From Candidatus Adlerbacteria bacterium (GTDB lineage: Bacteria; Patescibacteriota; Minisyncoccia; Phycocordibacterales; SBAW01): a stretch of DNA of 64,000 bases. Each line of letters opens with the position of its first letter. Position 1 is the stretch's first letter. Positions 10,888-32,992 of this stretch are shown in pieces. A program made the translations under genes and the position numbers. The stretch lies in the NCBI GenBank assembly GCA_903851045.1, contig CAINNF010000018.1, positions 3,925 to 67,924 of the forward strand. The letters are read 5' to 3'. The notes beneath the pieces are model-generated. The model searched no databases and was not told the origin of the DNA. It worked only from the letters and a program-made list of their open reading frames with translations.

Positions 10888-10891
10888 CAAA

Positions 10892-12170: not shown

Positions 12171-12301
12171 CGGGAAAAATCGGCGAAGAGCCGATTTTTC
12201 CTTTGTCAAAATTTCCTTATATAGAGCCACCGTACGGCTTGACAACAACCTGTTTACTTGTAGAATGCAGACAAACACAGTTCTTTGAAAGGAACATAAG
12301 C

Positions 12302-15254: not shown

Positions 15255-15326
15255 GACAGCGGTCTTGTGGGAAGAACAAAAACGGCGAGCCCCACTCAGG
15301 GCTCGCCGTTCTCTTTTTGCATCTTC

Positions 15327-15686: not shown

Positions 15687-15726
15687 ACCATGTGCGTCCT
15701 TTATATCGAGCGGATAAACGAGCTCC

Positions 15727-16065: not shown

Positions 16066-16184
16066 ACGAAAGAAGTGGCTAAGATAATTTTTAATGGTAT
16101 ACGACCAGTGTAGCAGTCGTGCCCATCCTCACAATAGCCCTGTGTGGATAGCCTGGTCGACATGCACAAAAGCCTTACCCAACA

Positions 16185-16445
16185 TTAACTGCCGAACACG
16201 CCGATACGCATAACCGCGAGGATGCCGCTCAGCGAAAAAATGATGAAAAGTCCGATCAGCCCCCACTTGATCAGCTCCTTCCCGTCCTGTTGTCCCTTCG
16301 AGCCAGCGCTGCGGCTTATATAAAGCACCATACCGAACATGAAAACGGTAATGGCCGTGCCCGAAAGAAGCCACACAAGCAGTTGCATCACCATCAGGAC
16401 GGAATGGACGACGGTCACAAAGGTGGCGCTGGTGTTTCCTGTCAT
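16185..16445 (-). CDS. TrbC/VirB2-like pilin-family protein, paralog 3 (short)
   Basis: Two TM helices flanking a GSKGQQDGKEL loop, as in the paralogs. Confidence 0.45.
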   Translation of the reverse strand: MTGNTSATFVTVVHSVLMVMQLLVWLLSGTAITVFMFGMVLYISRSAGSKGQQDGKELIKWGLIGLFIIFSLSGILAVMRIGVFGS

Positions 16446-16450
16446 ATCGG

Positions 16451-16843
16451 CTAACTACAGGAGGACGCGCTCCCGGCGTTCTGTGGAGAGATATTCTTAA
16501 TCGTGTTCGCTATCACCTGTCCCAAGAACCACGCGGCCATAAAAATAAGGATACCGAGTAGCACGTTCACAAGATTCTCTTTAGCCCTCGCTATGTCTCC
16601 CGGATTGCCGCGTGCGGAAATGAACTTAAAGCCAGCCCATACGAGAAACCCTGCCGCTATAGGGCCACCAACCGACAGCACAAAGCCAAGGATTAGTTTC
16701 ATGAGGCCACAGATCGAGTTTGCCGCAAGCGGATTCGCTATCGTGAACCCGGTCCCAGGGTCGTTAGCGGTCGTGACCCCAAGAGCGATCATGGGAGTAC
16801 ACAGCAGAGCGAACAAGAAAAGATGTCGTGCGAAGGCCTTCAT
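16451..16843 (-). CDS. TrbC/VirB2-like 'T4SS pilin'-family small membrane protein, paralog 4
   Basis: ARGNPGDIARAKENLVNVLLGILIFMAAWFLGQVIANTI aligns with ARGNSEGIARARENLWKVVIGVVLFMSSWLLGVTIVNTI of 60185..60493. Confidence 0.65.
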   Translation of the reverse strand: MKAFARHLFLFALLCTPMIALGVTTANDPGTGFTIANPLAANSICGLMKLILGFVLSVGGPIAAGFLVWAGFKFISARGNPGDIARAKENLVNVLLGILIFMAAWFLGQVIANTIKNISPQNAGSASSCS

Positions 16844-18171: not shown

Positions 18172-18187
18172 AGTATTTCCATGATAC

Positions 18188-18745
18188 TTAATGCATCGTT
18201 GGTCGAACCTTCTTGCGAACGACGAACCCCCAATGATATTCACCTGCGGGAATATCCTGTACGTATTCGAGCGCTACTTTTTCGAACAGGTCTCGTGCGG
18301 TACCGACCGTGAGCACGTGGTCGGGGTGTGGCCCAAGCCCCCCGAACGAATCGCGCCAGTCGATGACCACCCCGCGCCCGCCCGGACGCAGTATTCGTTC
18401 GACCTCATGTGCCGCCGCAACCCGGTCCTCCAGTGCGAACAAAAGGTTCGAGACGATGGCCACATCGAACGTATCGTCGGAGAGATGACTCCCCTTCTTC
18501 GCCTCGACATCTCCGCGCACGATCTCCACGTTGTGGAGACCTTCGGCACGCGACAGGTTGTGGATCCTGGTCAGAAGGTCCGGATTCACGTCGACGGCCC
18601 ACACCACCCCAGTGGGACCGACCATACGCGCAGCCGTGCGCGTAAAAAAGCCCGAACCCGCGCCAAGGTCGGCGACATGCATCCCCTCATGCAGTCCGAC
18701 CGCATCAAGCGCTTTCGCTGGCTGTAAGAACGAACTTTCTTCCAT
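18188..18745 (-). CDS. class I SAM-dependent methyltransferase
   Basis: VADLGAGSGFF motif I; VVWAVDVNPDLL. Confidence 0.7.
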   Translation of the reverse strand: MEESSFLQPAKALDAVGLHEGMHVADLGAGSGFFTRTAARMVGPTGVVWAVDVNPDLLTRIHNLSRAEGLHNVEIVRGDVEAKKGSHLSDDTFDVAIVSNLLFALEDRVAAAHEVERILRPGGRGVVIDWRDSFGGLGPHPDHVLTVGTARDLFEKVALEYVQDIPAGEYHWGFVVRKKVRPTMH

Positions 18746-18825
18746 TGTTCCTATTGTACATCTAAAAATATCGTACGCATCAAGTGATGATGTGTACGAG
18801 ACGACGCAACCGACACCCTCTGTGC

Positions 18826-19563
18826 TTACAGCTTTGCGTAGAGTGTCGTAAATATCGTCTTTTGAAAATCGGCCAATGCCTTGTTCTCGATTACAAGCGT
18901 CGTTTCACTGTTCAAATCGATGAACGCAACCTTTGTACCATATATCAGCTCGATAATGTTCTGCTCGAACCGCTCTTGGCCCTGACCCAGGTATTTTATG
19001 AACCGCTCAAGGCGCGGCTTTTTTTCCGTACCCGACACGGGGTTGCTGATGACCATCCGTTCGAGCTTCTTTCCGTCACGCTTCTTCCGATAGTCTCGGG
19101 GCAGATAGCTATTCACTTTCGCCAGATCGGTCTCTGATGTGTAGCGATAGAACACATCACCCTTCTCGAGCGAATCGACGATATCCGAGAACACCTGCGA
19201 GATCCCGTTCTTGCCCTCCAGCATACGTACGACGGGCGTATTGCCCCTGGGACCATACAAGGCCTCGAGGTCCGACAGCGATTCGTTCAGATCAACCTCA
19301 AGATCGGTGACCAATGCGCGCAAGCGGTCGGGCTTCTGTGCCATATACAATGTTCGAGCACCTTTCGGTGAGGTACTGACGAGTCCTTTTTGCATAAGCG
19401 AAGCGAGTGCTGCATAGACCGCGGGGCGGTGCTTGTCCGCACGCCGCGCGATATCGGTAGCCGAGGAGGCACCGTGGCTTAGCAAATAAAGGTAGACCGT
19501 TATGTCCCCCTGCGAAAGCCCAAGCCGCCGCAGGAGTGACTGTATTTTTGTGTTTTGTATCAT
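18826..19563 (-). CDS. TrmB-family HTH transcriptional regulator
   Basis: Start at MIQNTKIQSLLRRLGLSQGDITVYLYLLSHGASSATDIARR (wHTH). Confidence 0.6.
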   Translation of the reverse strand: MIQNTKIQSLLRRLGLSQGDITVYLYLLSHGASSATDIARRADKHRPAVYAALASLMQKGLVSTSPKGARTLYMAQKPDRLRALVTDLEVDLNESLSDLEALYGPRGNTPVVRMLEGKNGISQVFSDIVDSLEKGDVFYRYTSETDLAKVNSYLPRDYRKKRDGKKLERMVISNPVSGTEKKPRLERFIKYLGQGQERFEQNIIELIYGTKVAFIDLNSETTLVIENKALADFQKTIFTTLYAKL

Positions 19564-19716
19564 AAATAGTACAATGTATATATAAAAAATATCCTTATAA
19601 ATAAACACTTATTGGCTTATAAAAAGCGATTATAGTACATATTGTATCAAATTGCAATACAAATGCGCGCACCTGCACTATGCTAGCGAAGGATGTTCTT
19701 ACATAGGAGTGAGTCG

Positions 19717-20004
19717 ATGCAAGTGTTAAAGGCGGGTCGCAAACAGCGCGGCCAAGCAATCAAACTGACCTGCACTGGGAAAGGCAACGGTGGTGGCGGA
19801 TGCGGAGCGAAGCTCCTTGTGGGCCAATATGATCTGTACAACACACACAGTTCGCACTATGACGGCAGCACGGAGTCGTACATCACGTTCTGCTGCCCAG
19901 AGTGCGGCACCGAGACCGATGTCGAGCGGACCGGATTCGATATCCGCGGCACTCGTCCCTCGGCCAACGAACGTGCGCGCATGGGGCACGAGCCATCCTC
20001 ATAA
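19717..20004 (+). CDS. hypothetical zinc-ribbon protein
   Basis: Start at MQVLKAG after GGAGTGAG RBS; CTGKGNGGGGCG...CCPECG. Confidence 0.4.
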   Translation: MQVLKAGRKQRGQAIKLTCTGKGNGGGGCGAKLLVGQYDLYNTHSSHYDGSTESYITFCCPECGTETDVERTGFDIRGTRPSANERARMGHEPSS

Positions 20005-20584
20005 TCGAGTCTGAGGTCCGCGTTCACCTCGCTAAGCTCACCTTCGACCATAGACGCATATTGACTGCCGGGCACCATCACACGATGGTGCCCTTTCTTG
20101 TGTTGATAAGCGGCACAGGCTACTCCCGTGTGGGGAAGCCCGGTCACGCTGCTAGCTGTCGCGCTTCCTTTGTCGTCTGTGTACGGACAGTCTCAGGAGC
20201 ATACAAGTTCCCATCATGAGCCAACATCATGAGAAGCGTTTGAACGTGAAGATATTTAGTCAGTTGTTCGGGAGTGAGCGGCGCCTTCTCCGAAGAAGCG
20301 GGGCGTGTTGACGCCTGAGTTCTCGAACGAATCCCAAATCGTTCTATATTCATATCGTGTAATTATACAAGAATTAGCACAGTCGAAAACCGTCAATCTC
20401 CACCCACGGCAGTCACACACACGTATGGCAATAGTTCAACCCTTCGCGGGTCACAAACATTCTTTTTGCGGAGAGGGTCGGTCTAGAACCAACCCGCTCC
20501 AAGCAGTATAAGGCTTTTTGAGCGACTTTTCCATGCGCCAAAATTAGGGGGAACGGTCGGGGTCTGAGAAATCACGCGTTACAA

Positions 20585-20809
20585 ATGTTACAACTTTTTA
20601 CGTACGTTTTTCGATATAATAAAGGCATGTTGAGTAAGAAGGCCAAAGACGATTTCAAGAAGATCATCAAGAAAGATTACGGGGCCGATCTGACAGACGA
20701 TCAGGCCGAAGAGCTTGGTGTCAGTCTCCTCCGCCTCACCCGGGTCGGCCTTTCAGCTCTAGCAAGAAGCCATGACAAAAAAGAAAAAGATAAAAAGAAA
20801 GCTGACTGA
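20585..20809 (+). CDS. hypothetical small basic protein
   Basis: ORF only; Lys-rich C-terminus. Confidence 0.3.
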   Translation: MLQLFTYVFRYNKGMLSKKAKDDFKKIIKKDYGADLTDDQAEELGVSLLRLTRVGLSALARSHDKKEKDKKKAD

Positions 20810-21224
20810 GGTAGAGGAAAAACAAGTCGACTATTTCGTTGATCGACTGGCCAACATTTTACTTATGCAAGTTGAGCAAGAAGCCCTCGAGAAGGCAGAA
20901 AAATCGAAACCCAAAAAGAAAACTGTGGATAAGTGAAAACCCTTATTACAAGCCACGATTTTAACTTTTTGTTGTTAACTCTTGTCAGGGCTTGAGAGGA
21001 AATGACAGGAAGTGACTTTGCAATGCATTTTTAGCGTTGCTACGATTAGGGCACGCAGGAATCTCACGGGGCATCCCCACGGAGAGGGTTCTGCAACAAA
21101 CAAATAAAGGACCCATCCAAGGGACCTAGAGCAACAACGTAACGTCTCGATACGCATCCCGTATCAAGGCGCTGCAAGGTTTTGCCTGGGTCCCTTTTGT
21201 ATTAATAGTTAGCAATTAATAACC

Positions 21225-22562
21225 ATGACCAAAAACAATCTCAAGATTGAGTACGTCCCTATCGACTCACTCCATCACGTGGAATACAACCCACGTATTA
21301 TCAACGACAGTACTAAAGCAGCCGTGCGGAAAAGCATCGAGATTCACGGGATGCAAGATCCGCTCATCGTAAACAATGCCCCCGAACGCATGGGCGGTAT
21401 CATCGGCGGCAACCTCCGCTATGAAGTGCTCAAGGACCTCGGATATACCGAGGTGCCAGTAGTCTTCGTTACCATCCCAGACATAGAGCGCGAAAAAGAT
21501 CTGTGTCTCAGGTTAAACCATGCAGTCGGAGAATGGAGCACTGATCTCCTCGCTGACTTCAGTGAAGCATTCCTCACAGATATTGGATTCTCTAGCGAGG
21601 AGATCGACAACATCTTCCCTGATGAAGATAATCCGACCCCGTTTGATCTCAAGAAGGAGTTGGAGAAACTCAACATCTCGAACATCTCTGTTAAAAAGGG
21701 TGACGTGTATGACCTCGATGGCTCCCGACTCATGTGTGGCGACTCAACCGTTGAGTCGGATATGCTCACACTCTTCGGTGAGTACCGAGCAGACATGTGC
21801 ATGACTGATCCTCCGTACATCCTCGACTATCTCCATGGGAAGAAACGTAACGGTAAAGCCACCGAAGGGTTCGGCCTCAGGCGTGACCGCAAATATCTCG
21901 AGACTGACGAATTGCCAGATAACTTCACCGACCTATGGATGGCGAATGTCGCAAAGATTCAGAAACCTGACTTTTCGATCATTGTGTACGAGAACCCCAA
22001 GAACCTGCGCACCATCTGGAACGCGCTTGAGGTGCACTGGAAGTATCGCAATACAATCGTTTGGACTATTCCGAACCGCGTGCAAAACTTCTCCGCTAAA
22101 TATAAGTTCTTCAACAAGCACGACATCGCGCTCGTGGGAACCTCGGGAGAGATTGCACTGCACACTGAGCCTGAAGATGAACCACTCTTCCAAAATGAGT
22201 ACGAGTCAGCGCTGTTTGCCACTGCGGGTAAGCCCCACTGGGAGTCGTATGGTAAAGACAAGAAGTACTGCCCAACTGACGTAATTGATCATATCGCTGC
22301 CGATGAGAAATCGTCGGGCCAAGGCATTATCTTCGGTACAAAACCCCTCCCGATACTCATTCCGTACATCAAGGTACTGACGAAGCGTGGAGATATTGTT
22401 GTTGAACCATTCGGCGGGAGTGGGTCGACTCTCATTGCCGCAAATACCATCGGACGTCGCTGCTTCCTCATGGAGAAAGTCCCGACCTATGCCGAGGTCA
22501 TCCTCAACCGCTGGGAAAAGTTCTCAGGCAAGAAGCGGGTGAAGATTCATGCACAAGCGTGA
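21225..22562 (+). CDS. ParB-like nuclease domain fused to N6-adenine/N4-cytosine DNA methyltransferase
   Basis: N-terminal ParB motif (EYNPRIIND..LIVNN..GNLRYEVLKDLGYTEVPVVFV); MTase motif IV DPPY (MCMTDPPYILDY) and motif I EPFGGSGST. Confidence 0.8.
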   Translation: MTKNNLKIEYVPIDSLHHVEYNPRIINDSTKAAVRKSIEIHGMQDPLIVNNAPERMGGIIGGNLRYEVLKDLGYTEVPVVFVTIPDIEREKDLCLRLNHAVGEWSTDLLADFSEAFLTDIGFSSEEIDNIFPDEDNPTPFDLKKELEKLNISNISVKKGDVYDLDGSRLMCGDSTVESDMLTLFGEYRADMCMTDPPYILDYLHGKKRNGKATEGFGLRRDRKYLETDELPDNFTDLWMANVAKIQKPDFSIIVYENPKNLRTIWNALEVHWKYRNTIVWTIPNRVQNFSAKYKFFNKHDIALVGTSGEIALHTEPEDEPLFQNEYESALFATAGKPHWESYGKDKKYCPTDVIDHIAADEKSSGQGIIFGTKPLPILIPYIKVLTKRGDIVVEPFGGSGSTLIAANTIGRRCFLMEKVPTYAEVILNRWEKFSGKKRVKIHAQA

Positions 22563-23061
22563 TCAGGAATCCATACTGATTAGCACCCTCGCCGAGGGTC
22601 ACACCATTACCGCCGCATGCAAGCGCGCGGGTGTCTCTCGTATGTTCTACGATCGACACTACAAGAGCGACCGTAACTTCCGTAAACAGGTCGATGAAGC
22701 CCGGTCTGTTGGTATGCATTCCAACGAAGATCTTGTGAGTACCATGCACATGAAAAAAGTGCGGGATGGTCATTGGCCTGCAATTCGGTACGCAATTGAT
22801 AAGAAGACAACTATGGAAAAAGAAGAGAAAGAGGACCGACGAGATCCAAATAGCGTACACATTTCTCCTGGCGATATTCGATTCCTGATTGATGCACTTC
22901 CAGAACCATTAAAATCGCGCAACTACATCAGACTGCGAGAGATCCTTGATGATTCCAGCGCCGCCCAGCAAGCAGGACAGCTTATAGACCCTCGTGTCAG
23001 GGCGGAGATGAAAGTAGCAAAGCCACCACCTGAAAAGCCGATCCAAATAGATGACCTCTAG
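22549..23061 (+). CDS. HTH-domain protein (possible terminase small-subunit-like/phage regulatory)
   Basis: N-terminal HTH ILISTLAEGHTITAACKRAGVSRMFYDRH; overlaps upstream stop by 14 nt. Confidence 0.4.
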   Translation: MHKRDQESILISTLAEGHTITAACKRAGVSRMFYDRHYKSDRNFRKQVDEARSVGMHSNEDLVSTMHMKKVRDGHWPAIRYAIDKKTTMEKEEKEDRRDPNSVHISPGDIRFLIDALPEPLKSRNYIRLREILDDSSAAQQAGQLIDPRVRAEMKVAKPPPEKPIQIDDL

Positions 23062-23267
23062 CGCTTCTTCAGATGCTTGGTGAATAAGGTCAGCTGGTTA
23101 GGGGGTGGCAGCGTCTTCTTTCGACCTCTCCATAAGCCAGTACACGGAAGTATTTTGTTGAGATAGTGCCAGACACGATACACCTCGGTGACAGACACAT
23201 CGTCACCAGTGGTCTCTTTGATTATTTCCTTCAGCTTCTGTGCGTTCTTAAGCGAAGGAAAAGTCAT
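23058..23267 (-). CDS. hypothetical small protein
   Basis: ORF only. Confidence 0.25.
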   Translation of the reverse strand: MTFPSLKNAQKLKEIIKETTGDDVSVTEVYRVWHYLNKILPCTGLWRGRKKTLPPPNQLTLFTKHLKKR

Positions 23268-23269
23268 GG

Positions 23270-23869
23270 CTATTGAGTTAACTGCGCGAGATCTTTATGT
23301 ACTTGAGCAAGATCAGTTGTGACCTTTTGCTCTGCGGCTTTAAGTTGTGCGGATGACACTTTGCTTATCTGCCAATTAATCGCAACTGAAGCCCACGCGC
23401 AGATATCACTGGCCGCTGTGTTGGTGTCGTAATTCCAGTCGTCGAGAGTACTTGGCGATTGCACGTGTGCCGAGGAGTACATATCCGAGACTGTGCGGTA
23501 TGCATCCATAGCATTTGCCGATGGATCGTTTTTTAGGCAGGTGTTAGTGCGGAATGCGCCAAATTTACTTGCTGCTGAATTTTGATCTTGTAGTGCAGAC
23601 AATCCAGCAGTTGCATTCGGATACTGAGTAGATCCGAGCGTATTTTTGCCTATCGCGAAAAGCTGGGAATAGTAGTCCGTACTCGCGACAAGTGTGGCCT
23701 CAACTTTTTTGGTATCTAAAGTAGCAGAAGACGTTGATGCAACAGGCTCAGGCTGTGTTGCGACAACTGTTTGTGTTTGCTGTGGTGGCAGATTATTTCC
23801 AATGAATAATAACGATACGAATATGAGAGCAGCTACTCCGATAACGGAGTAGAGAACTTTTTTAGCCAT
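23270..23869 (-). CDS. secreted/membrane-anchored hypothetical protein
   Basis: N-terminal MAKKVLYSVIGVAALIFVSLLFIG signal anchor. Confidence 0.5.
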   Translation of the reverse strand: MAKKVLYSVIGVAALIFVSLLFIGNNLPPQQTQTVVATQPEPVASTSSATLDTKKVEATLVASTDYYSQLFAIGKNTLGSTQYPNATAGLSALQDQNSAASKFGAFRTNTCLKNDPSANAMDAYRTVSDMYSSAHVQSPSTLDDWNYDTNTAASDICAWASVAINWQISKVSSAQLKAAEQKVTTDLAQVHKDLAQLTQ

Positions 23870-24251
23870 AAATTCTACTAGGATTTATACGGCAGAGCCC
23901 GATGAGGTAATCAAAAGGCTCCCAGCCATTGCGATAGCGCCTTTCGGCAACTACCCATACCCGTTTCCAGATATGACCTAGTAGAGTGACTCTGACTGGG
24001 AGTCCTTTGATCTCTACTAGGTTTTGCAACCATATCCTGAGAATTTGACTTCTTAGGGGTTAGGTCGGCTTGTATTCAATTGTTTGTACCAAGGGGTACA
24101 AGAACAATGATAACATTTTGAGTTATCACTTGGCCACCTTAGCTTAGCTTTGGAGGCTTGCGAAGGAGGTTACCAACAGAGATATGCGCCATCTCTGGCC
24201 TCAATTTGAGCTCACTAATCTATGCGAATGTTTTACTCCCACGAGTGAGTA

Positions 24252-24491
24252 TTATTGTAAGTCTTTCTTTTTCTCCTCAAACTCCTTTTTATCTATCTCA
24301 CCTTTAGCGTAGCGCTCTTTGAGAATATCGAGTGCTGTACCGCGCCCCAACAAACCGCACCACGATCCGCCGTGGCGGTGATGACGCACGATAGACACAA
24401 TGATCCAGATTATCAACACTAAAAACAATAGATCGAAGAGCCCACCGAAGAGACCTAGACCCCATGAATGATGTTCATAACCATAATGCAT
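24252..24491 (-). CDS. SHOCT-domain membrane protein
   Basis: Start at MHYGYEHH; TM helix then C-terminal ALDILKERYAKGEIDKKEFEEKKKDL (SHOCT). Confidence 0.5.
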   Translation of the reverse strand: MHYGYEHHSWGLGLFGGLFDLLFLVLIIWIIVSIVRHHRHGGSWCGLLGRGTALDILKERYAKGEIDKKEFEEKKKDLQ

Positions 24492-24519
24492 ATGCGTAAA
24501 TATATTACGAAATGATAAT

Positions 24520-24702
24520 TTATTGGGACGATGTATTGTCAGTTGGAGCGACCGTCTGCGTCGACGTGCCTCCGCCTTGCATGAACCAATAGATGCCGCC
24601 CAACACAATGACCACGATTACGACGATGGCTATGATGGTTGATGTCTTCATAACGTTTTTCAAATTACTTATAGTTGTTAATAGAGTGAACAAAACATTC
24701 AT
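24520..24702 (-). CDS. small single-pass membrane protein
   Basis: IIAIVVIVVIVLGGIYWF TM; stop/start abuts upstream gene. Confidence 0.35.
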   Translation of the reverse strand: MNVLFTLLTTISNLKNVMKTSTIIAIVVIVVIVLGGIYWFMQGGGTSTQTVAPTDNTSSQ

Positions 24703-26963
24703 TGATTGAGCGCTGCTCGCGTTGTGGGGCCGACATACCCAACTCGGCTTATACCATGCGCTCCCTGGAATTGATCAACCGCCGCCTGCGTGAGGGAACC
24801 GAAGTATCCGGTGATTGGGCCAGAATATACGCCGAGAGTAGTAAGCCGTTTCTGCAATTCTGTGACATCGTTTCCAGTCGAACCGACGCTAAGGAAATTA
24901 TTGAAGACAAAGCCGTCGTCAGCCGTAGTGGTGGTTGTACTACTGCTTTGCGCGCTATTAAGCGCCGCCCTCGTTGCCGGACCCACGACTCCCAGCTGCT
25001 GAATACCATGCGCGGCTTGAAATGCTACGACAGCAGCTTCAGTGAGAGAACCGTAATAGCCGGTTGCTGCTGCAGACAAATATCCATCTTTAATTAATAT
25101 ATTCTGGAGCGCAGTTACTTCACTACTTGTGAGCCCCGGATAAAGATAGTCGGTAATGACCGCGGAGGAAGACGTGGTTGTGACATTCTGCGACCCTGCG
25201 GCGACCACAAGAGTGGTTTGCGCGCTCGCAAGGTGGCTGTATGGATCAGTTGCCGTGACGGTTATTGTATGAGTTCCTGCGTCTGCATTGGTCGGTGTCC
25301 AAGAGAAATACCCCGACGAGTTGATGTCCGCATTCGTAATGCTTGAGCCGCCGAAAGAATCCTGCAAGGTATAGGAGGGCGAAGTAAAACCGTAAGCATA
25401 CGAGCTGAAGACGACCGTCGTGCCCGGCGCGACAGAAGAACTCGGCGTTGGAGCGGTGAGCGCCACCGAAACCCCGGAATTGACGCTTACGGTAATCGAG
25501 GTGTTGGCGCTATGCCCCGCGCTGTCGGTCGCATAGACGGTAATAATGTGCGATCCGGATTGATTGGTCGCAGGAGTCCATGTGAAATATCCTGACGCAT
25601 TGATGTTCGAGTTGGTAATCGTCGTACCGCTGAAAGAATCGCTAAGCGTGTAGGTTGGATTTACGAAACCAGCTTGCGACATGGTGAACGAGAGCGGGCT
25701 ATTGGGCGCGACAACCGTGCCTGGCGTGATTGAGGTAATGGTGATGTTTGGAGTCTGTACGGTAAGTGCGAGCGTGGTATTGCCGCTATGTCCCGAAGGA
25801 TCATTTACGTAGATAGTTAAGTTGTGTGTGCCGACTTGGCTTGAGTCTGGCGTCCATGTGAAGTAGCCGGCGGTATTGATGCTGGAATTGGAAATATTGC
25901 TGCCACCGAAGGAATCAGAAATGCTGAATACGGGGCTGGAGAAGCCCGAAGCCGCTACCGTAAAGGTGACGGGATTGCCGACGACTACCGTGGAGCCCGG
26001 CGAAAGTCCTTGAATAGACGCACCCGAGCCTCCAACAGTAATTGTTTGGCTTGCCGTCGCCGTGTGACCGGAACCATCGGACGCTGTCACGGTAATGGCA
26101 TGCGTGCCGACATCGCTGCTCGAAGGCATCCAAGAAAGGTTGCCTGATGAATTTATATTATTGCTTGAAAGAGTCGTCCCACTGAATGAGTCGCTTATCG
26201 AATATGAAGGACTCGAAAAACCCGAAGCCGCGGCTGTAAGAGTAAGCGTCTGTCCCACGTTAACACTTGAGCCTGGGGATAGGGACTGAATGACAAGCGT
26301 GGGCGCGGCACTTACAGTTATTTGTTCGGTCACGCTCGCGCTGTTCTGCGCATCATGCACCGTGACTGTTATGGTGTGCGTTCCTGCATCTTGTGTTGCC
26401 GGAACCCAGCTGAAGTTGCCCGATGAGTTGATATCTCCATTGACCACGGTCGAGCCGCTAAGGGAATCGTTCACGGAGTAGGTCGGGTTGGTAAAGCCCG
26501 ATGCCGCAACCGTAAAGGAAACCGTTTGCCCGATGGTAACTGCGGAGCTCGGCGAAAGGGATTGGATCGATACCGATGGCGCAGCGCTCACGGTCAGTGT
26601 TTCGGTCGTCGTAGCGCTATCGCCTGAAGAATCATTGACGGCAATGGAAAGATTGTGCGTACCGACATCATTCGAGTTCGGCGTCCATGAAAAGTTCCCG
26701 GACGAATTGATGTTTCCGCTGCCGACGCTGCTGCCGGATACCGAGTCGCTGATGCTGTAGATAGGGTTGGAAAAACCGGAGTTCGACACAGTAAACGAAA
26801 CATTAGTACCGACTGTGACACTAGTACTTGGAGAAAGAGACTGGATTGAAACGGAAACGCTCGCGTATGCAAACGCGAGCGGTACCGTCAAGAATCCCAG
26901 CGCAAACAGAACTTGTGCGAAGCGTTGTACCATTGTGTGCGAAGATTTCATGATGCTATCCAT
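24699..26963 (-). CDS. large secreted surface protein: ~8 tandem ~90-aa Ig-like repeats + two C-terminal peptidoglycan-binding domains
   Basis: Repeats of SIQSLSPS..VGQTVSFTVAASGF..PTYS..DS.SGSTV..INSSGNFSWTP...GTHTITV; C-terminal LTEAAVVAFQAAHGIQQLGVVGPATRAALN twice (PG_binding_1-like). Confidence 0.7.
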   Translation of the reverse strand: MDSIMKSSHTMVQRFAQVLFALGFLTVPLAFAYASVSVSIQSLSPSTSVTVGTNVSFTVSNSGFSNPIYSISDSVSGSSVGSGNINSSGNFSWTPNSNDVGTHNLSIAVNDSSGDSATTTETLTVSAAPSVSIQSLSPSSAVTIGQTVSFTVAASGFTNPTYSVNDSLSGSTVVNGDINSSGNFSWVPATQDAGTHTITVTVHDAQNSASVTEQITVSAAPTLVIQSLSPGSSVNVGQTLTLTAAASGFSSPSYSISDSFSGTTLSSNNINSSGNLSWMPSSSDVGTHAITVTASDGSGHTATASQTITVGGSGASIQGLSPGSTVVVGNPVTFTVAASGFSSPVFSISDSFGGSNISNSSINTAGYFTWTPDSSQVGTHNLTIYVNDPSGHSGNTTLALTVQTPNITITSITPGTVVAPNSPLSFTMSQAGFVNPTYTLSDSFSGTTITNSNINASGYFTWTPATNQSGSHIITVYATDSAGHSANTSITVSVNSGVSVALTAPTPSSSVAPGTTVVFSSYAYGFTSPSYTLQDSFGGSSITNADINSSGYFSWTPTNADAGTHTITVTATDPYSHLASAQTTLVVAAGSQNVTTTSSSAVITDYLYPGLTSSEVTALQNILIKDGYLSAAATGYYGSLTEAAVVAFQAAHGIQQLGVVGPATRAALNSAQSSSTTTTTADDGFVFNNFLSVGSTGNDVTELQKRLTTLGVYSGPITGYFGSLTQAAVDQFQGAHGISRVGYVGPTTRAALNQ

Positions 26964-26974
26964 TGGGCCTTGGT

Positions 26975-27985
26975 TTAGAAGAACCCAAAGAGGTTGTGGA
27001 AGAAGTTACCGATGCCACCAAAGAATCCCATGCCGCCTGTATGAGGTTGCGCAGTGTTCGTGGATGACTGTACTGGAGGAGTTCCGCTATCCATCACAGA
27101 CGACGCGGTGACTGATGTGCCGTTGGTTGTGCCTTGCACCACAACGTTATCGCCAACAACCACATTCGAGATCGAAGAAGCCGCGTTGCCTTTCTCTACG
27201 GTTGCATTTGTCGCGTCCACGGTGTAGGTAACATTGCTCTTGTTGGTTACGGTGAGAATTGAACCGTTTACTGCAGTGACATTACCGCCGATGACTGGCT
27301 GACCGTTACCTTGGATGACAGGCGTCGCATTTTGGTCCGTGCCCTGCCCCTGACCTACGCCATCACGGATCGTTGTAGCGGTGACAGAGGTGCCACTCAC
27401 GGTGCCCGCAACCATCACCGTATCTCCGACCGCGATGTTAGAGACCGATGAGCTTGAGCCGCCCTTCGTGACTGTCGCGTTGGTCGCATCGACCGTGTAA
27501 GTAGTACCTGTGCTACCACCCGGACCCATTTTAGATGTGACCGTAAGCGTATTCCCACTTACTGAAGCAACCGTACCGAAGACACCTGGTGATCGTGTGC
27601 CCATGTTGCCAACTCCGCCGCGGCCGCCCATCGCTCCATCACGAATGGTTGTTGCGGTAACAGATGTGCCGCTTACCGTACCCTGTGCTGAAATCATGTC
27701 GCCGACGGCAATATCGCCAAGTGACGATGCCTCACCATTTTTAGTGACCGTAGCGTTTGTCCCATCAACACTGTAAGTGGTGGGAGTTGCATTCTGACCG
27801 TAGCCATTGCTGGTGACAGTGAGAATGTCGCCGTTTATCGCAGAGACTGTGCCGCGCACGCCGGGAGTATGTGCGCCCCCGAAGCCAGGACCAGCCGCAA
27901 ATGCGGTGCCGCTGACAAGGAGAGAGCCGAGCAATACTGAACCTGCGACGATGTATCCTATCCTGCTTTCAATTTTGTTTTTCAT
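26975..27985 (-). CDS. secreted protein with three ~100-aa internal repeats
   Basis: Signal peptide; repeated TVTS..G.G..TTYTVDATNATVTKGG.SSS...IAVGD.V...GTVSGTSVTATTIRDG. Confidence 0.55.
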   Translation of the reverse strand: MKNKIESRIGYIVAGSVLLGSLLVSGTAFAAGPGFGGAHTPGVRGTVSAINGDILTVTSNGYGQNATPTTYSVDGTNATVTKNGEASSLGDIAVGDMISAQGTVSGTSVTATTIRDGAMGGRGGVGNMGTRSPGVFGTVASVSGNTLTVTSKMGPGGSTGTTYTVDATNATVTKGGSSSSVSNIAVGDTVMVAGTVSGTSVTATTIRDGVGQGQGTDQNATPVIQGNGQPVIGGNVTAVNGSILTVTNKSNVTYTVDATNATVEKGNAASSISNVVVGDNVVVQGTTNGTSVTASSVMDSGTPPVQSSTNTAQPHTGGMGFFGGIGNFFHNLFGFF

Positions 27986-28127
27986 AGTAATTTAGATTAA
28001 TTTTTACAAGCTACTACTAACTAATACGGGAGAAAGGGGCAATTAGGTGCTCTTCACGTCCCTACAACTGTTAATACGCCCACGGGACAAAAAAACTTTC
28101 ATCCCCAATTCATTAAAAGCTGGCTGG

Positions 28128-28433
28128 CTAATGAATGATATTAAAAGCCATAGATACAACGGTTATGACAAGTAGAGTAATACCCGCCATAAAAGAGTAG
28201 TCTGCAATATCTCGATATCGGGCAACGCGGGAGGCATCGTGACGCATGGAAATATAGGAATAAATGATGCTTATTGAAAGAAGAACTGAGGAAACTGCGG
28301 CAACCTCGTCTAAAATTGTTGAATTTGCAACACCGCTTACCCGGAGCCCGGTAATGATTATCAGACAAACCCCAATAAGGTTTGCGGCCGATTGCAGTAT
28401 GTGTGACGTGGCTTCTTTTTTGTATTCGCTCAT
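28128..28433 (-). CDS. small polytopic membrane protein
   Basis: ORF with three hydrophobic segments. Confidence 0.35.
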   Translation of the reverse strand: MSEYKKEATSHILQSAANLIGVCLIIITGLRVSGVANSTILDEVAAVSSVLLSISIIYSYISMRHDASRVARYRDIADYSFMAGITLLVITVVSMAFNIIH

Positions 28434-28760
28434 ATTTTTATTTGTTAATACTGCTTGTAACTATCAGTTTTAGCAAAAGAGGCCCCTATTGGAGGTCTCT
28501 TTTGCAAAAGTTCATAGTGTTTTTTGTACCAATTGTTTTTGAGTAGAGAGTCGACGAACGCATGTGGGCCGTAAAGAGTATTGCTATCCAATCAAGCGAG
28601 TAAGTACCTAATTACAAACCGGCTTGGGGGTGCGACACTCGCGGGCAATATTGTAGTAACAATAAGTTCGCTCGAGTCCAACAGTTGCAAGTGGTTGATT
28701 ACTAGTAATGCCTCGACCTGCACTTACTACTACGCGAGCAAACAAAAATTCCTTTCAAAG

Positions 28761-29447
28761 CTACTGCTCCCAGTTATGCACTGAGCGTGCAATAAATACA
28801 CTCGTCGAAGATTCAAGCAAACCAAACATTCGTATTGTGGAACTTGCGACGGGGACAAACGAGCCTGTGGATGTTGCGACCCGAACCTTCCAAGTACGGC
28901 CGTTAAAGTCAGTAACAGAAAAATTGTTGTTATCCTGGATTGAAGTGATGACTCCAGCCAACCTTCCCACAACCGGACGGCTATATGCTTCTCCCGAATC
29001 CAGCACCAACGAATCGTAGAGCGGTATGGTATTCAAAAATTCATGAGTAATTTTCCCAACACCAAAGAAGTTGAGGATTGAGCCGAAAATAATACTCAGA
29101 ATCACACAACCCAAAACCATCACTCGTATCGGGTACCTGTATCCCTTCTTTGTGTGTTTAAGTCCGATTCGTGCAATTACTATGAATAACACGAGCGCAA
29201 TAATCCAAAGAAACGGTACCATCGCGAGAAAATCAATCACATCATGGGGCATCGCCCATAGACCGTGTTTATGGAAATCAACAAAAAGGTACAGCATCAC
29301 TCCAACGGAAAAACCACCAAGGAGTAGGGAGAGTGCGGCACACAGCCAGTAAAACACTCGCCATACGAGAAAGCGCCAACGCGGAATCGAAATAATCTGA
29401 TCCTTCTCAATCCGTCCCATTATTTTGTTTGATAGTTCTTCGCTCAT
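28761..29447 (-). CDS. putative anti-sigma factor (membrane protein co-transcribed after ECF sigma)
   Basis: Start overlaps sigma stop (ATGA); N-terminal cytoplasmic segment then multiple TM helices. Confidence 0.45.
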   Translation of the reverse strand: MSEELSNKIMGRIEKDQIISIPRWRFLVWRVFYWLCAALSLLLGGFSVGVMLYLFVDFHKHGLWAMPHDVIDFLAMVPFLWIIALVLFIVIARIGLKHTKKGYRYPIRVMVLGCVILSIIFGSILNFFGVGKITHEFLNTIPLYDSLVLDSGEAYSRPVVGRLAGVITSIQDNNNFSVTDFNGRTWKVRVATSTGSFVPVASSTIRMFGLLESSTSVFIARSVHNWEQ

Positions 29448-30028
29448 ATGGTTGTCATCCCTTTGGCTTCCAGCGCAGTTTTTAATTCTTTTTTCCCTCG
29501 GTTGATAAGTGTTGCAACGGTACCCTCCGGCATTTTTAAAATGTCGCTAATCTCAGTATAGCTTTTCTCTTCAAGAAAACGGAGAACAAAAACCTCCTTG
29601 TATTTTGGATCAAGCTCAGAAAGAAGACTCTGTACAAGACGGGCATCGTCTCGTTTATGAGTAAGTTCAACAAAATCAGTCTCATCTGCTAACTGCTCAA
29701 AAAACACGTCCGTGTCCTCTGCGCTTAAGTTTAGTACGCGGGGGCGGACTTTTTTCTTTCTAAGAAACGAAACGGTCTCATTATGAGCTATGCGATAGAG
29801 CCATGATGAAAACTTAAGGCCGGAATCATAGTCATTGAGATTAATAAATACCTTGATGAAAATCTCTTGTAGTACGTCGTCTACGTCACCGTCATCAATA
29901 CCTCCTAAACGTTTACAGTAGCGGCGGATAGGGGCCTCGTACCTATGAACAATCTCTGAAAAAGCCTGCTTATCGGTAAGAGCGGCAGCGACTAATTCTT
30001 GGTCTGTTTTTGTTGATTCTACATTCAT
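29444..30028 (-). CDS. ECF-family RNA polymerase sigma-70 factor
   Basis: Region 2 (VLQEIFIKVF...FSSWLYRIAHNETVSFLRKKK) and region 4 HTH (YTEISDILKMPEGTVATLINRGKKELK). Confidence 0.85.
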   Translation of the reverse strand: MNVESTKTDQELVAAALTDKQAFSEIVHRYEAPIRRYCKRLGGIDDGDVDDVLQEIFIKVFINLNDYDSGLKFSSWLYRIAHNETVSFLRKKKVRPRVLNLSAEDTDVFFEQLADETDFVELTHKRDDARLVQSLLSELDPKYKEVFVLRFLEEKSYTEISDILKMPEGTVATLINRGKKELKTALEAKGMTTI

Positions 30029-30198
30029 GTAACTAAAAGTCGATATCGAGGAGCCCTGGGAGCATAACTGGCTCTGGATACTTCTTGTCGCAGAAAGCTG
30101 ACTCCTCTTTATACTAGCAATCTTGACCTTTTCTTACCAACTTCGAGGGCATTCGGACGCTCTGGACTCCTTAAGGGGTCTGCGTCATCTCTTGAGGT

Positions 30199-31530
30199 AT
30201 GGAACAAATAGCAACAAGGCCCGGTTTGGGAGACACAAGGAGGCAACCCATAGCCCAGCCAGTACGAGTTAGATATTGCCTCTATGCAAGAAAGAGTACC
30301 GAGTCAGAAGAAAGACAGGTCCTTTCTATCGATTCGCAGATCAAGGAGATGCTCCAGTTGGCCGACCGTGAGGGGCTGGAGATAGTCGAATTGAAACGAG
30401 AGAGTCACTCGGCAAAAGAGACTGGGCAGCGACCTGTTTTTAACGAAATAGTAGATGAGCTAAAAGCTGGCAAATATAACGGCATACTCACGTGGGCACC
30501 AGATCGTATTAGCCGCAATGCTGGAGATCTTGGAAAGATAGTAGACCTGATGGATGCGGGGACACTTCAGGAAATACGTACTCATAGTCAAAGTTTTAGG
30601 AATAACCCCAACGAAAAGTTCCTTCTGATGATTCTCGGGTCGCAAGCGAAGCTCGAAAACGATAACCGAGGCGTAAATGTTAAGCGTGGGCTACGGACAC
30701 GCTGCGAAATGGGCCTTAGGCCGGGGGTTGCCCCAGTGGGATATTCAAATGAGAAACACGCCGACCGTAAATGTCACGCGGTTATCGACGAACTGCGCGC
30801 ACCCGTAATCAAGCAAATGTTTGAGAAAGTGGCGAACGAGCAATGGAGTGGCAGGAAATTGTACCAATGGCTGAAATTCGACCTCAACTTCAAAAGTAGG
30901 GCAAACAAAAACATGACGTTGAGTAGTGTCTACGTGGTACTTCAAAACCCCTTCTACTATGGCGTATTCGAGTATCCAGAAAAGAGCGGCAACTGGTACG
31001 ACGGCAAACATCAACCTCTTATCACCAAGGAGCTGTTCGATAAAGCGCAGGAGCAACTCAAACGAGACCGCATCCTGCGCTCCGATATTAAGGAGTTTGC
31101 CTTTATTAAGCTCATGTTATGTGGGGCTTGCGGCTCGGGCATTACAGCGGAGGAGAAGTTTAAGAAACTAAAGGACGGCACCTCAAACCGCTACGTGTAC
31201 TACGGCTGCACCCGTGCGAGGGACAAGGACTGCAAGAACGGTTACGTACGGGAGGAAGAGTTGATTACTCAGACGGTCAAAATTATGGACCACATCGACC
31301 TCAACAACATCAGCATGCGGGAAAAATTCGAGGCAGAGGTAGACCGTATGCGAAAGTTTCAACGCGCATTCACTGCCACGACAACGGATGCAAAACCGCA
31401 AAAAGAAATCGACCTGCGCGGCTACGCTAAGTATTTACTCAAGGAAGGGAGTGTGACGGAGAAGCGCGAGTTGCTGCTCTGTATTAAGAGCAAGTTGGTA
31501 CTCGACAAGGGAACTCTGAGATTGGAGTAG
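30199..31530 (+). CDS. large serine recombinase (resolvase/invertase N-domain + recombinase + zinc-ribbon)
   Basis: VRYCLYARKSTESEERQVLSIDSQ (catalytic Ser region), ...WAPDRISRN; C-terminal CGACGS...YYGCTRAR zinc ribbon. Confidence 0.85.
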   Translation: MEQIATRPGLGDTRRQPIAQPVRVRYCLYARKSTESEERQVLSIDSQIKEMLQLADREGLEIVELKRESHSAKETGQRPVFNEIVDELKAGKYNGILTWAPDRISRNAGDLGKIVDLMDAGTLQEIRTHSQSFRNNPNEKFLLMILGSQAKLENDNRGVNVKRGLRTRCEMGLRPGVAPVGYSNEKHADRKCHAVIDELRAPVIKQMFEKVANEQWSGRKLYQWLKFDLNFKSRANKNMTLSSVYVVLQNPFYYGVFEYPEKSGNWYDGKHQPLITKELFDKAQEQLKRDRILRSDIKEFAFIKLMLCGACGSGITAEEKFKKLKDGTSNRYVYYGCTRARDKDCKNGYVREEELITQTVKIMDHIDLNNISMREKFEAEVDRMRKFQRAFTATTTDAKPQKEIDLRGYAKYLLKEGSVTEKRELLLCIKSKLVLDKGTLRLE

Positions 31531-31534
31531 CGAT

Positions 31535-32776
31535 CTACTTTCCCTTAAGTCGATCCTTATACTTCTTCCTCTGTAACCCAAGGTGGTACTTATGAAAATC
31601 ATCACTATCGCACTCGTTCTCAATTGTCAGAGCTTGCATACACCGGCCTCGACGATATGGACCGAATAGTTTTGCAAATTCTCCCTGAAACCACTGGAGT
31701 GTGTCGTGCTCGCTACCCGCATTCGTTTCTTTGCTGAAATCAGGATCCCCCGGCAATCTTCCGTATTCGTCCATAGCCCCGCCAGTCCCGTCATTATTGC
31801 CCCACATTATCTCGCCGCCCCAATGAATCGCACGAGGGTCAGGCATGAGCAGGTATCCATGCCCGTAGATATTCCAGTCTGATTTAGAGACATGGCGCTC
31901 AGGATACAACCATTCTTCCCTTGCTGCAGCTAAGTAACGGGTCGCACGACTCTTTATGATGAAATTTATTTCACGAACCTCCTGCTCGGTAAGGTGGCGC
32001 AGAACTTGGACATCGGTGAACTTAAATATTGCATTGCGAAAAGGAAACGAATTGGGGCGCTCTTGCTTCGCAGATTGATATGGATTCCTTACCCATGAAA
32101 GGTTTGTGAGTATCAGTACTTTATCGATCGAGAGTGGAAAAATGGTGTGTGTCCCCTGGAGCCATATCTCGGGATCGTTTGAGTCGCGACACTGATGTGA
32201 TCGGGGTCCGCATTCTCGATTATATACAGTAACGGGGTGATCAGAGACAATAAACTTCGTCTCCGACTGAGAAGCGTCCGCAATGAGCCAGACACATTCC
32301 GTCCAAATGGCGGAATGAATATTACGCAATCGAATCATGGCGCGTAGAATCGCGTCCTTATCCTTGCTTCCGATTTTCTCACTTAAAAACGAGAGGCCTT
32401 TGGGAGTCCTGAGTTTCTGGGTACTCATATAGCGCAAGATGTCCTCAAGGGAAGTTCCCCAATCCTTTAGTGGGTAGCCAAATTTTTCAAAGTACTCGAC
32501 AGCGGGGCGACCTTTCGTGTCTATCTCGCCGAAAAAGTGTTTCTCAATGTCTTTCACTTCAATGCCTCGTATTTTTGTCGTATATAAATCTTCTTCGACG
32601 AAACACTTTTTGCTGCCTTGCCGTTTTACTGCCTTCCTAATATGACGTACACCGCGCGGATCAGTGAAAGTTTCTGGATTCAAATCCAACTGAAACAGTT
32701 CATGTTCGCCAGGTAGCATGAACTTCTTTTGGTACCACTGCGGTACGTAGTGGTGATTTCGGTATTCATCAGGCAT
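31535..32776 (-). CDS. DUF4238-family protein
   Basis: N-terminal HHYVPQWYQKKF matches the DUF4238 signature HY(I/V)PQFYL..F as I recall it. Confidence 0.45.
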   Translation of the reverse strand: MPDEYRNHHYVPQWYQKKFMLPGEHELFQLDLNPETFTDPRGVRHIRKAVKRQGSKKCFVEEDLYTTKIRGIEVKDIEKHFFGEIDTKGRPAVEYFEKFGYPLKDWGTSLEDILRYMSTQKLRTPKGLSFLSEKIGSKDKDAILRAMIRLRNIHSAIWTECVWLIADASQSETKFIVSDHPVTVYNRECGPRSHQCRDSNDPEIWLQGTHTIFPLSIDKVLILTNLSWVRNPYQSAKQERPNSFPFRNAIFKFTDVQVLRHLTEQEVREINFIIKSRATRYLAAAREEWLYPERHVSKSDWNIYGHGYLLMPDPRAIHWGGEIMWGNNDGTGGAMDEYGRLPGDPDFSKETNAGSEHDTLQWFQGEFAKLFGPYRRGRCMQALTIENECDSDDFHKYHLGLQRKKYKDRLKGK

Positions 32777-32907
32777 TCCTAAACATTACTCCTGCCAGCA
32801 AAAAAGTTCGAATCCGCTTAGGGTTCGAACTTTTTTGTCTTTACTCATTTTTTATAGCCCCTTGTTTTATAGGGCACGCGGTCGCGAGACACGCATGCCC
32901 GTTCCTG

Positions 32908-32992
32908 CGGAGGCGGAGAGATTCGAACTCTCGAACCCTTGCGGATTGCCGCCTTTCCAAGGCGGTGCACTCGACCACTATGCGACGCCTCC
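32908..32992 (-). tRNA. tRNA-Ser (GGA), type II
   Basis: Reverse complement GGAGGCG..., anticodon stem CCGCC/GGCGG, loop TTGGAAA, long variable arm, T-arm GAGAG-TTCGAAT-CTCTC, acceptor CGCCTCC. Confidence 0.8.

Follow-up and report, generated by a model that had tools for sequence, protein, structure and literature searches.

Characterised large serine integrases target mostly protein-coding genes, and a short attachment (att) core rather than a long repeat is expected of this class of enzyme. Bacteria of the candidate phyla radiation (CPR, Patescibacteria) have very small genomes, and descriptions of their mobile elements are few. A tRNA target has been reported for the filamentous Ralstonia phage phiRSM, whose small serine recombinase acts at a tRNA-Ser 3' end with the core TGGCGGAGAGGGT (PMC3816273). 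In the present work, a stretch of 64,000 nt from a Candidatus Adlerbacteria bacterium (contig CAINNF010000018.1, positions 3,925 to 67,924; hereafter the window) was analysed. Positions 20467-32912 of the window very probably represent a site-specific integrative element, which encodes a large serine recombinase and used it to insert at the outermost 3' bases of a tRNA-Ser(GGA) gene. The element boundaries, family membership, target specificity and gene content were established by the analysis, and a mobile island of CPR bacteria, together with a larger family, is now defined to the base.

The integrated element measures 12,446 bp counting both cores, or 12,439 bp as a unit. An initial annotation, made from the sequence alone, had proposed an integrated element at 19600-32992. 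This proposal was borne out by the tRNA-Ser association, a shared right arm, a shared left end and a conserved left module. Its core region was retained; the left limit was moved from 19600 to 20467 and the right limit was set at 32912. All the genes that it had listed were recovered at the same positions (open reading frame (ORF) calls, Pfam, ARAGORN, Rfam).

Integrase and target tRNA

The recombinase of the element is a full-length protein of 443 aa and carries the domains PF00239 (Resolvase, 68 bits, residues 28-172), PF07508 (Recombinase, 56 bits) and PF13408 (Zn_ribbon_recom, 33 bits). The motif of the catalytic nucleophile serine, YARKSTESEERQ, is present in its translation. The best relative in the PDB was the SPbeta integrase YokA/SprA, aligned over residues 29-381. 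The three Pfam domains and the tRNA call confirmed the initial annotation, which had placed a large serine recombinase near tRNA-Ser(GGA). Homologous recombinases form at least 7,999 sequence clusters, and the window protein is 90-93% identical to many others. The named relatives belong to Minisyncoccia, Azambacteria and Nealsonbacteria. For the TrmB-like regulator in the flank of the element, the best relatives (59% identity or less) come from MAGs of Nomurabacteria, Kaiserbacteria, Paceibacterota and Saccharibacteria, and the window is accordingly of CPR/Patescibacteria origin. As far as named sources show, the element family appears to be restricted to CPR/Patescibacteria.

Recombinase relatives of 45-92% identity were surveyed in 36 IMG/VR loci (45-68%) and 83 metagenome loci; the loci compared are labelled with L-numbers. 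The metagenome set comprised 80 loci from a scan of JGI metagenomes unbiased toward viral calls (62-91% identity) and three more obtained from a 92% relative. In the IMG/VR loci, a downstream tRNA gene (Ser, Gln, Asp, Glu, Asn or Trp) was found for 14-15 recombinases, always on the opposite strand and in some loci at a distance of only 117-164 nt. A downstream tRNA is reached by 46 of the 83 metagenome loci; it lies on the opposite strand in 46/46 and is a tRNA-Ser in 43/46, with the anticodons gct, tga, cga, gga and act. The recombinase subclade is therefore specific for tRNA-Ser genes, with any anticodon.

A second tRNA-Ser (cga) is located in the window at 60704-60793 and ends in CTCTCCGCCA; the relatives L081 and L161 target tRNA-Ser(cga). 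Its downstream flank is devoid of a GACC arm and looks unoccupied, and it is followed by a low-GC gene for a 464-aa methyltransferase-like protein (60948-62342). Beside another target tRNA, the tRNA-Gln bounding the family element in L043, an S-adenosylmethionine riboswitch (RF00162, 50 bits) was detected at 13655-13760, in the host DNA directly past the tRNA.

Attachment sites

The tRNA-Ser(GGA) gene has remained intact, with its 3' end directed toward the element. On the tRNA-sense strand, the right junction (32928 to 32880) reads GTTCGAATCTCTCCGCCTCCGC / AGGAACGGGCATGCGTGTCTC GCGACC. The 28 nt directly before the TGCGGAG of the tRNA, GCGGTCGCG.AACAC.....C.CGTTC., are nearly invariant in the window and five further elements, whose recombinases are 87-92% identical and which lie next to tRNA-Ser(cga), (tga) or (gct). 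Because it travels with the recombinase across different tRNA-Ser genes, the segment 32878-32905 is element DNA, and the junction is therefore placed at the last bases of the tRNA. A motif G[CTA]GACC was found 14-22 nt past the 3' end of the recombinase-proximal tRNAs (tRNA-sense strand) in 10-12 of 14 IMG/VR junctions, and in none of the control tRNAs (0/14 other tRNAs, 0/20 further ones in metagenome loci).

The left junction on the tRNA-sense strand (20489 to 20449) reads GTTCTAGACCGACCCTCTCCGC / AAAAAGAATGTTT GTGACC. In blastn comparisons, the window segment 20430-20640 matched L084 (129-191, 84% over 63 nt) and L086 (354-379 and 429-450, 92-95%). Both matches lie at the far end of an element, and the recombinases of these elements are 90% (L084) and 87% (L086) identical to that of the window. 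In a three-way alignment of the window, L084 and L086, conservation begins exactly at TGCGG (20467) and extends for about 115 nt, with none leftward; over these 115 nt the identity to the two far ends is 84-92%. The pseudo-tRNA 3' half at 20467-20500 mimics an acceptor stem and T-arm. The initial annotation had pointed to a tRNA-like minihelix at about 20470-20510 as a left att candidate, and homology to L084 and L086 indeed starts at its core. A G[CT]GACC motif, 14 nt from the left core, matches the arrangement beside the recombinase-proximal tRNAs of the family. The left terminal block fits the pattern GTTC.A-N-G[CT]GACC; this composite pattern gave 16 matches in the window and 36 loci vs 4.7 in shuffled sequences, and the non-random matches are at tRNA junctions.

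Direct repeats of the tRNA-Ser 3' end had also been proposed as att sites. A long repeat was not found: no tRNA-derived direct repeat of at least 9 nt was detected, either with a 10-nt seed over 15-36 kb or when the tRNA region was compared with the left end for exact matches of 9 nt. The 7-bp core TGCGGAG is present at both ends. Shared cores of similar size occur in L084 (CTGCGG) and L086 (TGCGG), at both ends of each. In L041 a tRNA-Asn at one end is accompanied by a 45-nt imperfect copy at the other (alignment score 46 vs a null maximum of 23), and in L102 a perfect 21-nt copy of the tRNA-Ser 3' end lies upstream of the methylase. The 10-mer TAGGGCACGC (21047 and 32870) was rejected as an att repeat, since the family F8-like gene (20627-20809) lies to the left of 21047; about 0.27 such matches are expected by chance. 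In L029 (6429-6556), a pseudo-tRNA 3' half with a GTGACC arm is only about 27 nt from the intact tRNA, suggestive of successive integrations or of a leftover hybrid site having served as the target.

From these data we infer the recombination chemistry, as well as a satellite-type transfer and the roles of the cargo and of an RNA, which are considered below. The recombinase would pair attP with attB, and exchange at the central dinucleotide would leave hybrid sites. The attP would consist of the two element ends, namely the tRNA-Ser 3'-half mimic (now 20467-20500) and the GGTCGC-containing arm (now 32878-32905). The attB would comprise the tRNA T-arm, the acceptor end and about 20 bp of downstream DNA, a native flank that would also carry GTGACC. 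The reconstructed sites would be …GCATGCCCGTTCC-TGCGGAG-AGGGTCGGTCTAG… for attP and …GGGTCACAAACATTCTTTT-TGCGGAG-GCGGAGAGATTCG… for attB, with the predicted junction sequences GACACGCATGCCCGTTCCTGCGGAGAGGGTCGGTCTAGAACC and CGCGGGTCACAAACATTCTTTTTGCGGAGGCGGAGAGATTCGAAC, respectively. The crossover would fall inside TGCGG, and since the core coincides with the end of the acceptor stem, the tRNA would be left intact. GCGACC approximates the reverse complement of the T-arm TCGAACC, and each att site can thus be read as a rough dyad near the tRNA end.

Serine recombinases can also be invertases, and a 17-nt inverted repeat (27976-27992 and 29175-29191, 16/17 complementary) covers with one arm the start codon of the repeat protein, the second arm falling within the gene of the putative anti-sigma factor. 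Alternatively, the region could then be native, with a housekeeping invertase or resolvase that switches the neighbouring surface-protein genes. This is highly improbable: the protein shows the domain set of integrases (recombinase and zinc ribbon), the relatives keep the tRNA junction and not the surface genes, and the element ends are common to elements in other genomes. About one such pair of repeats (estimate ~0.7) is expected by chance in 21 kb, and the repeat is probably meaningless.

Conserved core of the element family

The core of the family was defined by clustering all ORFs of the recombinase-containing IMG/VR loci. It is colinear and encoded on one strand: the ParB-methylase (33/37 loci), the helix-turn-helix (HTH) protein (28 loci), a large terminase (at least 22 loci) and then the recombinase. 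The third of these, of about 500 aa, was identified as a terminase large subunit (phrog_38, 281 bits; Terminase_6N/6C). The full layout of a member is the left end, the F8-like gene, the ParB-N6/N4 methylase, the small-terminase-like HTH gene, the large terminase, minus-strand cargo (often with a LOOT RNA), the integrase, optional cargo and the tRNA. Variable genes are mostly on the opposite strand, between terminase and recombinase or past the recombinase; in the relatives, type I and type III-like restriction systems, a reverse transcriptase and DUF2779 are found among them. No paper describing these elements was found in the literature searched, and the family is large and apparently undescribed.

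In the window element the methylase, the HTH gene and the recombinase are in family order on the same strand. The methylase, which is the first gene of the conserved module, matched phrog_498 (251 bits) and the PADLOC type II methyltransferase model. The HTH gene overlaps its stop by 14 nt, an overlap that had been noted initially; the profile matches together with its position point to a small-terminase-like protein and not to a generic regulator. In the family the HTH gene is always directly upstream of the large terminase (at least 22 loci), and the protein may accordingly be a small-terminase-like member of a phage-derived packaging module. The window copy is a family member without the large terminase, which it has lost; the methylase and the small-terminase-like gene are still present, as are the integrase, the LOOT RNA and the two att arms. 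The large terminase is also absent in L027, L041 and L084. The small ORF at 20627-20809 belongs to the element because it is homologous to the N-terminus of the family protein F8, which is encoded upstream of the methylase in the relatives; it is called as a gene on public contigs.

Four complete att-bounded elements of 12-15 kb were recovered, L041, L084, L086 and L102. L084 (13.2 kb) has no large terminase and carries a Dam methylase, a ParB-like protein, a helicase and M23 and M78 peptidases as cargo, while L086 (15.1 kb) has the large terminase together with DUF4352 and an AAA/NACHT-like ATPase of 1,350 aa. Genes for portal, capsid or tail are missing from L084, L086 and every other family member examined, and no structural match (portal, capsid, tail or lysis genes) was obtained in the window element with Pfam and PHROG. 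No close relative of the L086 large terminase was present in IMG/VR, and a profile search was used instead. Wherever a large terminase is at least 44% identical to those of the family, it is preceded by the methylase and HTH genes, and the recombinase follows if the locus extends far enough. The next-nearest ones (41-43%, L174 and L176) precede genes for portal, protease and major head proteins, as in ordinary phages. The family is therefore phage-derived yet capsid-less, since its members lack structural genes and the nearest outside terminases come from tailed phages.

The element could also be what is left at one end of a formerly complete temperate phage after deletion of its structural genes. 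The methylase, the small-terminase-like protein and the serine integrase all have phage-type profile matches, the family has a large terminase, and relatives are listed as viral contigs in IMG/VR. A defective prophage is nevertheless improbable: the compact capsid-less layout recurs in dozens of loci, including the four complete elements, and independent deletions would not give one recurring layout. Moreover, the large-terminase clade of the family is never followed by a portal gene, and the next clade out is.

Two loci showed repeated arrangements. L085 (JGI Ga0209211_10003156, 8778-20109) contains two family elements, apparently in tandem; in the second, the HTH and large terminase genes are followed on the minus strand, in the same position, by a 52% homologue of the Ig/peptidoglycan-binding protein of the window. 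The hairpin near the right end of the window element is 91% conserved in L085, 1.1 kb downstream of the (first) recombinase of that locus. In L025, a 12.4-kb IMG/VR contig, positions 1-450 and 11940-12396 share about 440 nt, including the HTH gene, at 93% identity. A circular genome was rejected here, since head and tail are 93% and not 100% identical; two tandem related elements are more likely, or else strain variants were collapsed in the assembly.

LOOT RNA

A LOOT RNA, overlooked in the initial annotation, was first noticed through a translated match that crossed reading frames and was then found by an Rfam scan. The accounts of LOOT consulted here go no further than a metagenome-derived RNA of six helices and about 43 base pairs (PMC7779021, PMC7657543). 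The copy in the window is full length and above the gathering score. It differs from the published motif in its setting: the published text gives a metagenome motif only, and here the RNA gains a genomic context inside an element family, the first one in the literature searched. LOOT was detected in 11 of the 31 IMG/VR family loci scanned and in seven metagenome loci (nhmmer). It is encoded on the strand opposite the core genes in all loci seen but one (L019), mostly just upstream of the methylase or integrase, and in a few loci, the window included, within the cargo. A role as a target guide was rejected, since the stretches identical or complementary to the own tRNA junction (6-9 nt) are no longer than those to non-cognate junctions.

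Gene content and composition

The features of the element and its borders are collected in Table 1. The initial annotation had regarded the surface-protein and extracytoplasmic function (ECF) sigma genes as cargo, and they are indeed located between the two conserved modules. Being flanked by both family modules, in the variable slot, the envelope and sigma genes are internal cargo. As initially suggested, this cargo might remodel the cell surface under a regulator of its own. In the proposed sigma/anti-sigma pair, the sigma factor was confirmed (Pfam, TIGR02937); the anti-sigma assignment is drawn from the 4-nt overlap and the membrane topology only. The large Ig-repeat gene contains 276-nt internal repeats. 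The repeat-rich protein gave no Pfam or family match, and the two ORFs at 23058-23869 had no Pfam, PHROG or PADLOC match.

DUF4238 homologues with 74-75% identity were found on the minus strand directly after the recombinases of L117 (3344-) and L153 (3394-). These recombinases are only 65-67% identical to that of the window; the gene for DUF4238 therefore seems either to pass from element to element or to be retained at this place. A defence role for DUF4238 or other cargo was considered and not retained, as no PADLOC match was obtained and DUF4238 has no PDB relative.

Table 1. Features of the integrative element and its immediate surroundings (positions in the window)
Feature	Position	Strand	Evidence or remark
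Zinc-ribbon-like gene, 95 aa	19717-20004		backbone; conserved beside TrmB in distant CPR genomes
Strong terminator of the 95-aa backbone gene	20070-20093		backbone
Chromosome-side arm, left junction (putative B' half-site)	20449-20466	-	tRNA-sense strand: AAAAAGAATGTTT-GTGACC
Left 7-bp core copy TGCGGAG	20467-20473	.	identical to 32906-32912
Left terminal block	20474-20580	-	pseudo-tRNA 3' half (20467-20500, putative P arm of attP), then conserved non-coding sequence
Small protein, F8 N-terminus homologue	20627-20809	+	blastp E=5e-7 and 1e-4, small database of F8 proteins
54-aa lysine-rich ORF	20772-20936	+	gene call on contig L070; no family match
ParB_N-N6/N4 DNA methyltransferase fusion	21225-22562	+	ParB_N 30 bits, N6_N4_Mtase 69 bits (Pfam)
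HTH protein, 170 aa, terminase-small-subunit-like	22549-23061	+	phrog_4044 E=3e-5; PF20901 18 bits, below cut-off
ORF, 69 aa	23058-23267	-	ORF call
ORF, 199 aa, N-terminal membrane anchor	23270-23869	-	ORF call
LOOT RNA (RF03000)	23933-24066	-	Rfam 72.5 bits, gathering score 46.4, E=1e-11, model 1-121 of 121
Small membrane protein, SHOCT domain (cargo)	24252-24491	-	PF09851 36 bits
Secreted protein, ~750 aa, Ig-like repeats and two PG_binding_1 (cargo)	24699-26963	-	PG_binding_1 113 bits; He_PIG, Big_9, PKD
Repeat-rich secreted protein, Gly/Thr/Ser-rich, 336 aa (cargo)	26975-27985	-	signal-peptide-like N-terminus; three internal repeats
Membrane protein, 101 aa (cargo)	28128-28433	-	ORF and gene call; no family match
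Multi-pass membrane protein, candidate anti-sigma	28761-29447	-	start overlaps sigma stop by 4 nt
ECF sigma factor	29444-30028	-	Sigma70_r2 and r4_2; TIGR02937 102 bits
Large serine recombinase, integrase of the element	30199-31530	+	PF00239, PF07508, PF13408; phrog_95 integrase 206 bits
DUF4238 protein, recurrent passenger between integrase and att site	31535-32776	-	PF14022 61 bits
Hairpin, perfect 17 bp, T-loop-like arms	32799-32837	.	inverted-repeat search; resembles a bidirectional terminator
Element-side arm, right junction (putative P' half-site)	32878-32905	-	+ strand: GCGGTCGCGAGACACGCATGCCCGTTCC
Right 7-bp core copy TGCGGAG	32906-32912	.	overlaps last 6 nt of tRNA gene
tRNA-Ser(GGA), integration target	32907-32992	-	ARAGORN; Rfam tRNA 56.7 bits

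The GC content of the element is 0.483 vs 0.532 for the rest of the window. It is mostly 0.43-0.50 and patchy across the element, and about 0.53-0.55 outside. The lower, patchy GC that had been noted initially was therefore found for most of the region; unlike the rest, the Ig/repeat cargo genes are at the host level (0.535).

No relaxase or type IV secretion genes were found within 20467-32912 by Pfam scans. A type IV secretion pilin gene (16451-16843) lies outside the element. This gene (PF18895) stands beside a solute-binding protein gene (16451-18243 together) in the backbone to the left, with no relaxase nearby. The 95-aa gene at 19717-20004 is likewise chromosomal backbone, because it is paired with TrmB in distant CPR genomes. 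Between its terminator and the left junction, a stretch of 373 nt (20094-20466) includes a 69-aa ORF (20144-20353, minus strand) and GGTCAC motifs at 20142-20147 and 20449-20454. Elsewhere in the window, a very low-GC patch (0.32-0.42) at 6000-9000 directly follows tRNA-Cys and tRNA-Leu(taa) (5496-5747). It contains ORFs at 6100-7587 (plus strand, 495 aa) and 7792-8763 (minus strand, 323 aa), with no Pfam match and no integrase, and is probably another acquired islet.

Occupancy of the integration site

The window sequence was found 100% identical on at least 15 public metagenome contigs from several samples. Presence/absence polymorphism within the species, which had been suggested as a check, was not seen: every contig of the species with flanks is occupied and 100% identical. 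The exact flank pattern of an empty site gave 0 matches in the JGI metagenomes, and degenerate attP and left-arm patterns, as expected of a circular form, gave 0 matches in IMG/VR. TrmB relatives in GTDB genomes and the protein database, used for a further empty-site search, were at most 59% identical and not syntenic. The contig ends at 32846 and 20080/20092 were rejected as breakpoints, as no novel junction sequence was present; the contigs concerned apparently represent one low-coverage sample that was assembled twice.

In two sister species, whose flank is about 71% identical in nucleotide sequence, the genes for the M48 peptidase, the large flanking protein and DUF5663 are retained together with tRNA-Ser(gga). 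The DNA 3' of the tRNA differs, and the contigs either stop or contain insertions of another kind: a P-loop protein and a phosphoesterase in one case, an IS3 element and an fn3 protein in the other. The tRNA-Ser(gga) site is a hot spot.

Several points weigh against an active, satellite-like integrative element. Neither an empty site nor a circular (attP) junction was found, and the window copy may be fixed or immobile. The large terminase, or a remnant of it, is absent from the window (tblastn with all family large terminases). Domains of a replication gene (primase or replicase) were not detected among the element proteins, nor was a recombination directionality factor recognised. The small-terminase assignment comes from weak profile matches plus a conserved position, and satellite-type transfer is read from gene content only. 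Of the 25 metagenome loci that extend 6 kb or more upstream, only 10 show the methylase within 6-10 kb; hence the packaging module is common and not universal. Finally, the 373-nt stretch with its GTGACC motif could be the native attB flank or the remnant of an older, displaced element.

Part of these observations could be attributed to a fixed, decaying remnant, a domesticated island. Its integrase and methylase would have persisted by chance or through another function, and the envelope and sigma genes would by now be ordinary genes of the host. The full occupancy with 100% identity in several samples, the lack of an empty site or attP junction, the loss of the large terminase without trace and the host-like GC of the largest cargo genes (0.535) are in line with such a decay. 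On the other hand, the integrase is full length and closely related to many others, both att arms are conserved as well as in the relatives, and absence of the large terminase is seen repeatedly among the relatives (L084, L041, L027), more in keeping with a viable variant than with decay. A remnant is accordingly regarded as a rather unlikely explanation.

Lifestyle and significance

The preferred reading is that of an integrative element whose lifestyle is possibly that of a phage satellite, judging from its genes. A member of the family would excise, would be cut and packaged by its own or a helper terminase into helper capsids, and would re-integrate at a tRNA-Ser. More tentatively, the family could be the first class of phage satellites in CPR/Patescibacteria, capsid-less, with an own terminase and a tRNA-mimicking serine-integrase site. 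In that case LOOT might be a working part, e.g. a regulator of excision or packaging or a cofactor of the packaging motor like the phi29 pRNA, and the integrase clade might be a library of tRNA-end-specific integrases; this extended proposal is rather doubtful at present.

The data provide a recognition rule for such elements: a serine integrase pointing at a tRNA 3' end, a GGTCGC-type arm beside the tRNA and a tRNA mimic at the far end. The elements offer a possible route for envelope proteins and the sigma factor that goes with them, and for restriction/defence genes in relatives, to pass between episymbiotic bacteria. Since the attP arm changes together with the enzyme, the integrase clade is a natural series of integrase/site pairs, which could be of practical use in genome engineering.

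Comparison with known systems

The phage-inducible chromosomal islands (PICI), including the Staphylococcus aureus pathogenicity islands (SaPI) and the capsid-forming PICI, the phage-inducible chromosomal minimalist islands (PICMI) and the P4-like satellites resemble the present elements in their size (10-15 kb), a site-specific integrase, a small-terminase-like gene, the lack of a full virion set and the accessory or defence cargo. Besides the small-terminase-like gene, most relatives of the window element have a large terminase. In contrast to those satellites, the recombinase is of the serine and not the tyrosine type, no primase/replicase or master repressor was recognised, and the ParB-methylase and LOOT RNA are not satellite hallmarks. 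The elements described here have no known helper phage, and their likeness to satellites comes from genes alone.

Islands with tyrosine integrases that are linked to tRNA genes share the insertion at a tRNA 3' end, the preserved tRNA, a partial tRNA copy at the far end, a lower GC content and a variable cargo. They differ in the class of recombinase and in the far-end copy, which is imperfect here and shares 7 bp, vs an exact repeat of 15-60 bp. The phage phiRSM is similar in that a serine recombinase acts at a tRNA-Ser 3' end with a core, TGGCGGAGAGGGT, closely resembling TGCGGAGAGGGTCGG found here. However, its enzyme is a small one of the resolvase/invertase type and belongs to a filamentous phage, whereas a large serine recombinase and a capsid-less double-stranded DNA island of CPR bacteria are involved in the present case.

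SPbeta SprA/YokA, phiC31, Bxb1 and CcrAB of the staphylococcal cassette chromosome mec (SCCmec) have the same three-domain enzyme, a short att core and the integrase gene at the end of the element. Nevertheless, the window integrase is at most 28% identical to any integrase of the deposited phage genomes, and it scores far below the NCBIfam cut-offs for CcrA, CcrB, CcrC and XisF. Unlike the known large serine integrases, the enzyme described here is associated with tRNA-Ser 3' ends, whatever the anticodon, and one arm of its attP mimics the acceptor and T-arm of the tRNA.

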